A stretch of 64,000 bases of DNA from a virus (Duplodnaviria; Caudoviricetes), in the IMG/VR virus record IMGVR_UViG_3300028628_000004. The stretch is one strand, 5' to 3'. The notes beneath the pieces were generated by a model that worked only from the letters and a program-made list of their open reading frames with translations, was not told where the DNA came from and made no database searches. This document shows, piece after piece, positions 16,841 through 38,586 of the stretch. A program made the translations under genes and the position numbers. The first letter of the stretch is position 1. Each line of letters opens with the position of its first letter.

Positions 16841-17662
16841 CTATTTTCCATCACAGTGACCGGATTTATAGTACTTGCACCAATTGCATAGTCTTTGTGG
16901 TTTTTTGACCCATTTATTCGAATCTTCAAGCTGTATGCCGTTTGTTTTTAATGTTTCTATAGCCCTTTTGACTCTATTTTCGGCGCGTATAATGTCAAAT
17001 TCTTCTAGGTTATAGTATTCCAAAACTTCATCTACGCTCGTTTGGTCTTCGAGACATAAATTAACAATCTCCCCCGTTGCTTCTACAATCTTTTTATCTT
17101 TGGTTGTCTTATTAATAACATAAAGATAAAATCCAAGCTGCTTGCTGTGATCTTTCTTCTTTTTTCCTGTTTTAAAATCTGTTATGAATAGTTTGTTGTT
17201 TATCTCATATATACCATCAACTTTTCCCTGAACATGAATATTCTTTCCATCTACGTTGTCAATATCATATAGATCAAACTGCTCTTCGTGTTTTATTCCC
17301 TTGCACTGTGGGTATCTTTTTGTCAAGTAAAAGTTAGTGTTGTATGCTGCCTTTGCAATCTTAGCTCTATATTCGGGATTTAACTTATTCCAGTATTTTT
17401 CCTTAAGATTTTCATCTTCTTTGAATAATTTTAATAATCCCTTTATTTCCTCGCCAGCACCGCCTTTATAGTTTTCGATTATTATGTGTAACATGCGCCC
17501 AAAAACCAATGCTGTTTGGTCATCTGGTACTTTTATCTTTGCTATATATTGAAGATAGTATTGATAGTGGCATTTTTCCATCGTATCAATAGATGAAGTA
17601 GAAAGAGTTATTCCTTCTTTTTGCTTCTTTCCGAATTTCTCTATTATTTGGTATTTTGACAT
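16841..17662 (-). CDS. PD-(D/E)XK exonuclease, Cas4/AddB-like
   Basis: S.SSI...KC..QY; GKVD...ITDFKTG; QL..Y; C-terminal CNWC....HC. Confidence 0.85.
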   Translation of the reverse strand: MSKYQIIEKFGKKQKEGITLSTSSIDTMEKCHYQYYLQYIAKIKVPDDQTALVFGRMLHIIIENYKGGAGEEIKGLLKLFKEDENLKEKYWNKLNPEYRAKIAKAAYNTNFYLTKRYPQCKGIKHEEQFDLYDIDNVDGKNIHVQGKVDGIYEINNKLFITDFKTGKKKKDHSKQLGFYLYVINKTTKDKKIVEATGEIVNLCLEDQTSVDEVLEYYNLEEFDIIRAENRVKRAIETLKTNGIQLEDSNKWVKKPQRLCNWCKYYKSGHCDGK

Positions 17663-22531: not shown

Positions 22532-22906
22532 TGGTGGAGATGTGCGGTGCTGCCCCGCAGTCCAAAATCACTTTCATATTCCGTCTACAAGTTTAGAAGT
22601 TTAGACTTAAACTCCAAAGATGCTTCTTGTTGATCGTCCTGGCACGGGACTAGGATAATAACGCATATCCGCAACTCACAGTTGTCTTAATCTTGGGTAA
22701 CTGTCAGTTACATTGCCAAGAAGCAACCCCTATGTTACAGAGTTTCCAAGTCGAGATATCCTTGGGACTCTGGCAAGGAGCGATTAAGCTGCCATTGCGT
22801 ATTCAACTGAGTCATCAGTTATTTTTTTACATGTTTTTTAAGTGACCACATGTTCCACTACTTGCAAGAGATACTTCCACGATCCTGTCGAATCTGTGTC
22901 ATCCCC
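22532..22906 (-). ncRNA. ssrA: tmRNA, tag (A)DDSVEYAMAA*
   Basis: 5' GGGGATGA..GATTCGAC, 3' TCTCCACCA with G3.U; ATAACT then tag ORF at 22816..22784. Confidence 0.93.
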
Positions 22907-27068: not shown

Positions 27069-27188
27069 TAGTTGGGAGTGAGGGATTCGAACCCCCACAG
27101 AGAGATCCTGGCGACTGTTTATGGACTTGAACCACATTGTTTCCTATAACAATCAAAGTCTCTCGTCCTACCATTAGACGAACCCCCA
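27069..27188 (-). tRNA. tRNA-Gln(TTG) with a 46-nt mini-tRNA insert (27109..27154)
   Basis: AGAGA-CT-TT[insert]G-GA-TCTCT; host tRNA ends in CTA rather than CCA. Confidence 0.8.
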
Positions 27189-27827: not shown

Positions 27828-27898
27828 TGCAGGATAGAGGAATCGAACCTCTGACTCCGGCTTAACTGCCGGTGTGATAACCACTTCACCAATCCCGC
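27828..27898 (-). tRNA. tRNA-like with a 6-nt anticodon loop, identity undetermined
   Basis: CCGGC-AGTTAA-GCCGG; intact D and T arms; no CCA. Confidence 0.55.
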
Positions 27899-28330: not shown

Positions 28331-28447
28331 AAAAGACCACACCGTTTCTGCATTGTTAAGAGGCTGGTATGGTGCTACTGAACGACCACTCATGGTTGAG
28401 CATCTTAGAGAGGCTTGAGTGGGGCGGAGCCGTTTCATGCTCCTTAT

Positions 28448-31485: not shown

Positions 31486-31560
31486 TGGTGCCCCCACCAC
31501 GACTCTCACATGGCTTTCCGGAGTACAAAACCGGTGTGTCGATATCTACACTTTAGGGGC
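31486..31560 (-). tRNA. tRNA-Thr(TGT), variant elbow
   Basis: CCGGT-TT-TGT-AC-TCCGG. Confidence 0.75.
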
Positions 31561-31592: not shown

Positions 31593-31922
31593 TTACTTCA
31601 AAAGCGACAGCTTACCGAAAATAGCTTTGGACACTTCGTTGTCGATGGGTTCAAAAGCAGTTGCGGTTTCTGCGTTAGACATATCGGGTTCTATGAAGGT
31701 GGTGTATGATAACTCCATTCTGTCATAGAGTGCCTTTATGCTTGCAATTTCGTTATCCGTTGCGGAGAGAAGAATCATTGTCTTGTGGTTGTTCACCCAA
31801 TCAATGACTTTGGGCTTCTGTCCGTGTTGTGCCATAAACTCGGCAGCCGCGTGGCTACTCTGTACAGCACAATGAGTTAACGGAAGTATATCTCGTCTGA
31901 TGAGGATGAACATCTTAAGCAT
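31593..31922 (-). CDS. Peptidyl-tRNA hydrolase, Pth2-like
   Basis: KMFILIRRD....CAVQSSHAAAE...W...KTMILL...FIEPD...ETATAFEP; GGAGG RBS. Confidence 0.8.
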   Translation of the reverse strand: MLKMFILIRRDILPLTHCAVQSSHAAAEFMAQHGQKPKVIDWVNNHKTMILLSATDNEIASIKALYDRMELSYTTFIEPDMSNAETATAFEPIDNEVSKAIFGKLSLLK

Positions 31923-31926
31923 TTTG

Positions 31927-32313
31927 CTATATACCTCCGGTGCCACAGGCACACTCGGGTATGAGAGCATCTTGTTTCTCCTTGACGTAATCTTCCATTC
32001 TCTTACGAATGATTTCAGAAGACTGAACATATTCTTTTTCTCTCTCTTCGTTTAAGTGGCACTTACCACGAACCTGTCCATACGCTATATGCATACAAGT
32101 AGTCCGGTACTTATCGTTGCGGATTGCGTTCTCTGCACACCACCAGTATTTTTCACCTGATGTATCGTAGGGGTAGGCATTGCCTGGAAGTCCAGTTGAT
32201 GCACTACGCTGGTTGCGGCGTAAAGCCTGTTTGTTGTGAGCAAGTCTCTCAGCGAGAGTCTTGATTTCGCTGCGGAAAAATTCCATTGCGAGTTTATGTT
32301 GGGTTATATCCAT
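31927..32313 (-). CDS. Hypothetical protein co-transcribed with Pth2
   Basis: AAGGA RBS; HIAYGQVRGK. Confidence 0.75.
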   Translation of the reverse strand: MDITQHKLAMEFFRSEIKTLAERLAHNKQALRRNQRSASTGLPGNAYPYDTSGEKYWWCAENAIRNDKYRTTCMHIAYGQVRGKCHLNEEREKEYVQSSEIIRKRMEDYVKEKQDALIPECACGTGGI

Positions 32314-32365
32314 GATTTTATTCCTTAAGGTTGATTGTTGAGTTTACGAACTACAGACAATCAGC

Positions 32366-32413
32366 TTATGGAGGACCACGAATCAGCTACCCATACTCTT
32401 TGTTCTAACGCAT
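32366..32413 (-). promoter_or_regulatory. Amber-interrupted leader M-R-*-N-K-E-Y-G-*-L-I-R-G-P-P-stop
   Basis: AAAGGA RBS, then ATG CGT TAG AAC AAA GAG TAT GGG TAG CTG ATT CGT GGT CCT CCA TAA. Confidence 0.7.
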
Positions 32414-32445
32414 AGCTATCCTTTCTTGTTGAGGTTAATACGACA

Positions 32446-32521
32446 TGGTGCTTCCGGTGGGATTTTAACCCACAACCAAGCGGTTTAGAATCGCTTGCTC
32501 TTTCATTTGAGCTACGGAGGC
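32446..32521 (-). tRNA. Amber suppressor tRNA (CTA)
   Basis: AGCGA-TT-CTA-AA-CCGCT, full cloverleaf, ACCA. Confidence 0.8.
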
Positions 32522-34606: not shown

Positions 34607-34726
34607 TGGCTGGAAAGAAGGGATTCGAACCCCTGACCTAGTGATTATGGTGATGAGCGTAAGAGTTGAACTTACTGATTCCTTTGCCCATTACAGTCAC
34701 TTGCACTACCGCTGTGCTACTTTCCA
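34607..34726 (-). tRNA. tRNA-Asn(GTT) with a 45-nt mini-tRNA insert (34648..34692)
   Basis: AGTGA-CT-GT[insert]T-AA-TCACT. Confidence 0.8.
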
Positions 34727-38505: not shown

Positions 38506-38586
38506 TAGAGCCTCTGACGGGGATTAGGCACCCCGCTTCCTCCGGTTTACAGTCCGGTGCTTTAAACTAATATAAGCTACAGAAGC
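38506..38586 (-). tRNA. Thr-like tRNA with irregular anticodon and T loops, identity undetermined
   Basis: CCGG-ACTGTAAA-CCGG; ends in CTA. Confidence 0.5.

Follow-up and report, generated by a model that had tools for sequence, protein, structure and literature searches.

The closest described counterparts of the element reported here are the RAPP/RGPP arrest peptides, which include ApcA, ApdA, ApdP, CruR and peptides of Streptomyces upstream open reading frames (uORFs) (PMC12992588, PMC10987492). RGPP is the most robust arrest core of the RAPP type; it is refractory to elongation factor P (EF-P) and active with different N-terminal contexts (PMC12992588). We analysed a 64,000-nucleotide stretch of phage DNA (Caudoviricetes; IMG/VR record IMGVR_UViG_3300028628_000004), called the window throughout, in which an amber suppressor tRNA is followed by a short leader open reading frame (ORF) interrupted by two in-frame TAG codons, an ORF for a 128-amino-acid protein that we label gene X, and a gene for a Pth2-type peptidyl-tRNA hydrolase. 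Two traits of the RAPP/RGPP family were found in this leader. It is a small uORF with R-[AG]-P-P in its C-terminal region, ending in R-G-P-P at the stop codon, and the downstream Shine-Dalgarno (SD) sequence is sequestered by structure at the arrest site, in a hairpin expected to open when a ribosome stalls. The known members, however, are secretory or membrane peptides of 50-300 amino acids that are released by translocation force, and their targets are sec, yidC and metal-homeostasis genes, whereas the phage leader mostly comprises 14-19 codons and would control Pth2. The leader in the window encodes 15 residues with no hydrophobic segment and no signal peptide. Since it has no signal sequence, its input must differ from that of the known RAPP peptides, and the input that we propose is read-through of the two in-frame UAGs.

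In prfB, the gene for release factor 2 (RF2), an early in-frame stop measures termination efficiency at one stop codon and sets expression. The phage leader resembles prfB in having an early in-frame stop as a termination gauge. However, prfB relies on a +1 frameshift at a UGA inside the regulated gene, whereas the phage element has two UAGs in a separate leader together with a suppressor, an arrest motif and a hairpin. It has no frameshift site, and the leader frame is continuous through both TAGs. Phages with stop-codon recoding (10.1101/2021.08.26.457843; PMC9523058) likewise possess a suppressor tRNA with anticodon CUA (tRNA-CUA) that gates TAG-containing genes. In those phages TAG is a sense codon in many structural and lysis genes, whereas here the code is standard and conserved in-frame TAGs were found in a regulatory leader only. 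Engineered UAG switches (reviewed in PMC6412442) also combine two UAGs to cut leak and control read-through in a leader. These synthetic switches depend on unnatural amino acids and regulate transcription, through rut masking in leaders of the trp/tna type, whereas the phage element is natural and would act on translation initiation. In AMD1 (PMC13025110), stop read-through followed by arrest occurs as well, but that system is eukaryotic, involves the single stop of the main ORF and represses by queuing, whereas the phage arrest would activate a downstream cistron. No natural leader in which in-frame stop codons do the sensing came up in full-text literature searches. The element would be a form of arrest-peptide and SD-masking regulation with a new kind of input.

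The window carries every part of the locus on its minus strand. A suppressor tRNA of the kind here called type a (anticodon CUA, discriminator A73) occupies positions 32446..32521 and was recognised by ARAGORN and by the Rfam tRNA model (56.9 bits); its end is 32 nt from the leader ATG (32413-32411). The leader has the SD sequence AAAGGA at 32419..32424 and reads M-R-TAG-N-K-E-Y-G-TAG-L-I-R-G-P-P-TAA (32366..32413; codons ATG CGT TAG AAC AAA GAG TAT GGG TAG CTG ATT CGT GGT CCT CCA TAA). TAG1 is codon 3 (32405-32407), TAG2 is codon 9 (32387-32389), and the RGPP codons are at 32369-32380. From 32308 to 32383 the RNA folds into a three-tier hairpin (minimum free energy -20.5 kcal/mol, z = -2.9), and the SD of gene X, AAGGAA (32321..32326), is inside the middle stem. 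Gene X itself (31927..32313) ends in TAG and is followed by the gene for the 109-amino-acid Pth2-type protein (31593..31922). The order of tRNA-CUA, AAAGGA ribosome-binding site, double-amber RGPP leader, ORF and Pth2 given in a preliminary description of this DNA agrees with the sequence base for base. A further tRNA at 31489-31560 (minus strand), found by Rfam only and with its anticodon loop read as GUA (Tyr), begins about 30 nt past the Pth2 stop. With tRNAs on both flanks, the leader, X and Pth2 are probably a unit within one array transcript.

The RGPP-coding pattern alone is not significant, as one match was found in the window and 0.23 are expected by chance; the leader is significant because it is conserved in relatives. 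Contigs of related phages contained 18 distinct versions of the leader, and 11 of these (L001, L002, L004-L007, L016, L018-L020 and L126) were reached through homology of protein X or Pth2, so that the motif was not used in the search. Ten contigs with X homologues were examined and the same leader stood 5' of X in every one. The preliminary description was to be abandoned if the motif was absent upstream of homologues; the TAGs, RGPP and the SD-masking hairpin are present there. A search begun from Pth2 added one highly divergent locus, L126. Its leader lies at 970-1214 of that locus (record G003, 248 kb) and continues after RGPP for 24 codons to a TGA that overlaps the next ATG.

Both TAGs and RGPP were kept in all 18 leaders. 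The codons beside the invariant TAGs vary (R, C, L or Ile at codon 2; N, H or K), as does the leader stop (TAA or TGA), and synonymous swaps are found at several codons (TAT/TAC, GAG/GAA, GGG/GGA, CGT/CGG/CGC and CCA/CCT/CCC). Differences in length are whole codons only, the three segments having 1-2, 4-8 and 2-5 codons; the exception is L126, in which a 43-codon ORF precedes TAG1. Representative leaders read MR-TAG-HEYG-TAG-NIRGPP-stop, MCA-TAG-NTEYG-TAG-NIRGPP-stop and ML-TAG-KQEYG-TAG-LIRGPP-stop. Longer ones begin MR-TAG-NEYKTEYG-TAG-NDNSSRGPP and MIA-TAG-KKLEYG-TAG-VGCRGPP and continue beyond RGPP, and the L126 frame runs from its 43-codon ORF into TAG-VKRPDT-TAG-VNVRGPP and onward. Taken together, the whole-codon indels, the synonymous changes and the invariant TAGs argue that the frame is translated through both ambers and that TAG is selected as TAG. 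RGPP is also preserved as a peptide when written with other codons (AGA GGG CCT CCT in L126 vs CGT GGT CCT CCN), and Ser replaces the Ile ahead of its Arg in L019 and L020. A stop follows RGPP immediately in 13 of the 18 leaders (the window and 12 others), and RGPP is internal in five.

Further features of the leader recur among the relatives. Its SD is mostly (A)GAAAGGA, 5-9 nt 5' of the ATG. In 16 of the 18 leaders the base after TAG1 is A; from work by Bossi and by Miller and Albertini, both in 1983, amber suppression is said to be favoured by an A after UAG. The codons for E-Y-G stand immediately 5' of TAG2 in all leaders except that of L126 and shift with TAG2 when the spacing to RGPP changes. 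These codons may adjust how readily TAG2 is terminated or suppressed. RGPP-coding DNA with a CGN codon for Arg has a single occurrence in the 64-kb window and a single one in G001, a 214-kb relative with the module (about 90% complete; the record that holds L023), and each occurrence is the leader. When genome contigs were scanned with the leader DNA pattern, 85 matches were obtained, all due to chance, and none was leader-like.

In the window hairpin, the outer stem pairs AUUCGUGGU (Ile-Arg-Gly codons) with AUCAUGGAU (start codon of X), placing CGU opposite AUG. The middle stem pairs CCUCCAUAAG (Pro-Pro-stop) with CUUAAGGA (SD of X), and CCUCC of the Pro-Pro codons is itself anti-SD-like. The inner stem is GAUUGU/ACAAUC. 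Folding agreed with the earlier proposal that the leader end pairs with the ribosome-binding region of the next gene. The SD pairing stood as described, but the hairpin proved larger than noted, in that the outer stem also covers the AUG region of X.

The same three tiers were present in the minimum-free-energy folds of all 17 distinct leaders folded; that of L023 was not folded singly and aligns to the structure model. The inner stem co-varies, and its sequence differs among lineages: it has 10 bp of A/U in both L013 and L018, is GGUUG/CCAAC in L009 and has 12 bp in L126, for which the hairpin reaches -42.9 kcal/mol (z = -6.6). By RNAalifold, the second base of the leader stop (A/G) co-varies with a U/C beside the SD (AU:5, GC:4), and L019 and L020 have AGUC for AUUC together with a change of the second codon of X to ACU. 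In the covariance model alignment of 16 sequences, 92.3% of cells were paired compared with 27-45% when the partners were slid. Compensatory changes were observed in 7 pairs, a result matched by none of 500 shuffles. An alignment fitted to a covariance model favours the structure, and the slid controls and the independent per-sequence folds concur with it. We also folded the RNA under constraints that represent a ribosome on the leader. With the ribosome at TAG1 the hairpin stayed intact, at TAG2 the AUG stem alone was opened, and only at RGPP, with Pro1 in the P site, were SD and AUG released together.

Wherever the flank is long enough, a tRNA-CUA gene lies 5' of the leader, at a distance of 30-35 nt in several loci. 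At L126 it is just downstream instead, and at L012 it was missed by ARAGORN and found by Rfam. Two conserved types of tRNA-CUA occur across the relatives, type a, which has A73, and type b, which has G73 and differs in its D arm. Most relatives (L001-L007, L011 and L016) have two tRNA-CUA genes 5' of the leader, and the window has type a only. The two suppressor types might insert different amino acids.

The product of the last gene is identified from its sequence as a Pth2 peptidyl-tRNA hydrolase. PF01981 matches over the whole length (profile positions 1-115; 36 bits vs a cut-off of 23; E = 8.7e-9), and phrog_1866 and phrog_3668 were matched among the PHROG families; a phmmer search of the protein against PDB sequences gave no match. 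X is followed by Pth2 in all 10 loci examined and in every locus that is long enough. The middle gene of L126 has no detectable homology to X, so the constant partners are the leader, tRNA-CUA and Pth2. In the window the Pth2 ATG is 4 nt past the stop of X and its SD, GGAGG, is within the last codons of X, and for these reasons Pth2 would be translated by coupling to X. The stop of X is TAG both in the window (31927-31929) and in the 7 closest relatives checked (the L001-L007 junctions), and TAA in the more distant members L013 and L009. Read-through of the TAG of X adds 4 more codons and ends at a TAA inside ATGCTTAAG; amber suppression might in this way also alter the coupling between X and Pth2.

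An association of Pth2 with amber suppression was also observed outside this group of phages. G002 (115 kb) is an unrelated phage that is truly TAG-recoded, as 43 of its 83 ORFs of at least 150 amino acids need TAG as a sense codon. Its sole tRNA is a tRNA-CUA located 260 nt 5' of a Pth2-like gene (L128 1167-1520), and this gene begins AGGAGG-N5-ATG ACG TAG, with TAG as codon 3. The link between Pth2 and amber suppression recurs in different implementations, G002 being a second, independent case. The recurrence fits a need for peptidyl-tRNA recycling when UAG termination is overridden.

From comparative inference and the published data on RGPP, we propose that the leader is a double-amber gate in which arrest at RGPP unmasks translation of X and Pth2. 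That it is an amber gate of some kind appears highly likely, and the complete combination of gate and arrest is probable. A stop-codon read-through sensor had been suggested in the preliminary description, and the 18 conserved loci, the standard code and the constraint folding support that reading. The leader mRNA, which is probably co-transcribed with the suppressor tRNA, would be translated from a good ribosome-binding site. In the OFF state, termination by release factor 1 (RF1) at TAG1 or TAG2 would leave the hairpin closed and the SD and AUG of X hidden. In the ON state, phage tRNA-CUA that has matured and been charged would beat RF1 at both ambers; with suppression s at each, the fraction of ribosomes passing both would be about s squared, which would keep leak low. 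A ribosome that passed would stall at Ile-Arg-Gly-Pro-Pro and cover Arg-Gly-Pro-Pro-stop, the 5' side of both the outer and the middle stem, and the SD and AUG of X would then be open to repeated initiation. Such a circuit would turn on peptidyl-tRNA recycling and the role of X only during active amber suppression, when ribosomes would overrun UAG stops and drop-off or non-stop events should increase. We infer that suppression is the input, that RGPP stalls ribosomes in a context of 13-15 residues, and that more X and Pth2 is the output.

Several points weigh against this proposal. Stalling is taken by analogy from published RGPP work and not from so short a peptide, and the leader is without a signal peptide to supply the pulling force for release of the arrest. 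Comparison with other tRNAs was uninformative about the amino acid carried by tRNA-CUA, since its closest non-CUA matches share 64-69% identity with it and differ among themselves in amino acid identity. A DNA pattern search that presupposes part of the motif supplied seven of the 18 leaders. One Pth2 homologue, L124, is without the leader, and a TnpB-like gene occupies the leader position. The codons of RGPP are at the same time anti-SD and anti-AUG sequence; part of the conservation of RGPP is therefore explained by pairing of the RNA, and constraints on the peptide and on the RNA are not fully separable. Finally, the leaders of L009, L019, L020, L023 and L126 have 17-24 further codons after RGPP before a stop that overlaps the ATG of X, and because of this overlap translational coupling could open the hairpin without arrest.

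The five longer variants would suit an amber gate without arrest, an explanation that we consider unlikely. Ribosomes past both TAGs would open the hairpin simply by translating into it and terminating, either within the hairpin or at a stop that overlaps the ATG of X, reinitiation would follow, and RGPP would be kept only because CGU-GGN-CCU-CCN complements the AUG and SD regions. In every fold the R and P-P codons do pair with AUG and SD. However, RGPP outlasts replacement of its codons, as by AGA GGG in L126, and it outlasts changes in stem spacing, while the spacing between SD and AUG does not force four contiguous in-frame codons. RGPP is, moreover, the strongest published arrest core (PMC12992588), and CGN-written RGPP is absent from the rest of the G001 genome.

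A reading in which the module acts as a code-state switch is rather more speculative and, in our view, doubtful. Here the gate would measure suppressor tRNA against RF1, and X would antagonise RF1 or boost the suppressor in a positive feedback. The infected cell would be flipped to an amber-suppressing state in which Pth2 and transfer-messenger RNA (tmRNA) clear stalled or dropped-off complexes. If this were so, standard-code phages with the module would represent a functional stepping stone to full TAG recoding.

Phages that possess tRNA-CUA are often TAG-recoded (Borges et al. preprint), and the distant Pth2-bearing G002 is one such phage. TAG could be an ordinary sense codon, as in genetic code 15, and the leader a plain RGPP arrest leader that senses another signal. 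We regard this as improbable on the evidence of the genetic code. Code 11 gives the best tiling of the window, G001 and G003, and neither a large number of genes that need sense TAG nor a gain in coding density, as expected under code 15, was seen in any of the three. Code 11 tiles 95% of G001 with no gain from reading TAG as sense, and G003 is essentially standard-code. TAG is the stop of 11 of the 48 window ORFs of at least 100 amino acids, X among those it ends, and of 17 of 248 ORFs in G001. The large late genes of the window (a 2318-amino-acid protein, the baseplate wedge and the hub) contain no in-frame TAG, and the Gp23 capsid gene of G001 has no internal stop and hence no in-frame TAG either. 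A sense TAG should also swap with CAA/CAG or other codons, yet both leader TAGs are invariant. The leader TAGs are genuine stops in standard-code phages, and given the standard code the leader ambers must be suppressed if they are to be passed. When long ORFs requiring an internal TAG were sought in the window and G001, few weak candidates only were found; a TAG-rich in-frame extension 5' of the ORF at 16841-17662 was dropped as it looks non-coding. Several long ORFs of G003 contain a single in-frame TAG, for example those at 193790-196684 and 168852-171374.

It is very improbable that the element acts as RNA only, with the hairpin serving as a signal for processing or stability of the tRNA array and the small ORF being fortuitous. 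A position in the array directly after a tRNA and a stable, co-varying hairpin would suit such a role. The conserved SD-ATG pair, the whole-codon indels, the changes of synonymous type and the stop placed directly after PP in most leaders all argue for a translated frame, and the arms of the hairpin coincide exactly with the SD and AUG of the gene that follows. Least probable of all is a bar-like minigene, in which drop-off at ATG-NNN-TAG would sense or titrate Pth capacity and the remaining frame would be irrelevant: the regulated gene is a peptidyl-tRNA hydrolase and a strong SD with M-x-stop resembles the lambda bar minigenes, but codon 2 varies among Arg, Cys, Leu and Ile, some leaders have two codons before TAG1, and the frame past TAG1 is conserved through TAG2 to RGPP.

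If the double-amber gate with RGPP arrest is correct, it would be the first natural regulatory leader to sense stop-codon read-through. Phages would then monitor their own suppressor tRNA or the RF1 of the host and couple ribosome recycling to the readout. The gate would also provide a function for amber suppressor tRNAs in standard-code jumbo phages, a standing puzzle, and would suggest that stop-codon recoding could start as regulation. RGPP arrest peptides would be extended to a very short format that is independent of force. Synthetic biology would gain a compact natural element, about 130 nt long, with which amber suppression switches a gene on, with little leak and a squared response. 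The question is directly testable with simple reporters.

Gene X is confined to a small set of homologues: 20 were found among 5.8 billion proteins, and profile searching of 1.84 billion proteins gave only 14 representative clusters. Searching viral contigs with protein X as the query detected no related loci. A confident AlphaFold2 model built from 21 sequences comprises three helices (predicted local distance difference test score, pLDDT, 84; predicted template modelling score, pTM, 0.73), and an H-I-x-Y...R-G-K-x-H block is conserved and common to distant members. No credible family was found for X in Pfam or PHROG, and Foldseek matched the model to nothing in PDB or BFVD at E <= 0.001. With neither a family nor a fold match, the earlier idea that X is a termination or rescue factor is so far without support.

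At L124 (367-1824; record G004, 198 kb), the gene directly 5' of Pth2 encodes a TnpB-like zinc-ribbon protein of 365 amino acids. The leader, X and a nearby tRNA-CUA are all absent from this locus, and a mobile element may have replaced the leader-X module.

The phage genome to which the window belongs is large and T4-like, and no close DNA relative was found among GenBank phages. Other genes of the window include homing endonucleases, the baseplate wedge and hub, and ribonucleotide reductase. The module lies in a 17-kb array of about 40 tRNA genes and a tmRNA, identified with ARAGORN and Rfam. The phage tmRNA is at 22532-22906 (minus strand; Rfam, 108.7 bits) in the same array; tmRNA is also present in the arrays of relatives, and the tag peptides end in ALAA or similar. 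The Rfam abiF RNA motif (RF03085) scored above its gathering threshold at 28385-28422 (minus strand) in the window and at 1099-1135 in L012, and both matches are inside tRNA arrays, immediately 5' of a tRNA. Two Rfam tRNA matches in the window (27072-27188 and 34610-34726, minus strand) are 117 nt long and contain inserts of about 45 nt, and ARAGORN reported odd anticodon loops for the tRNAs at 27828-27898 and 38508-38586.

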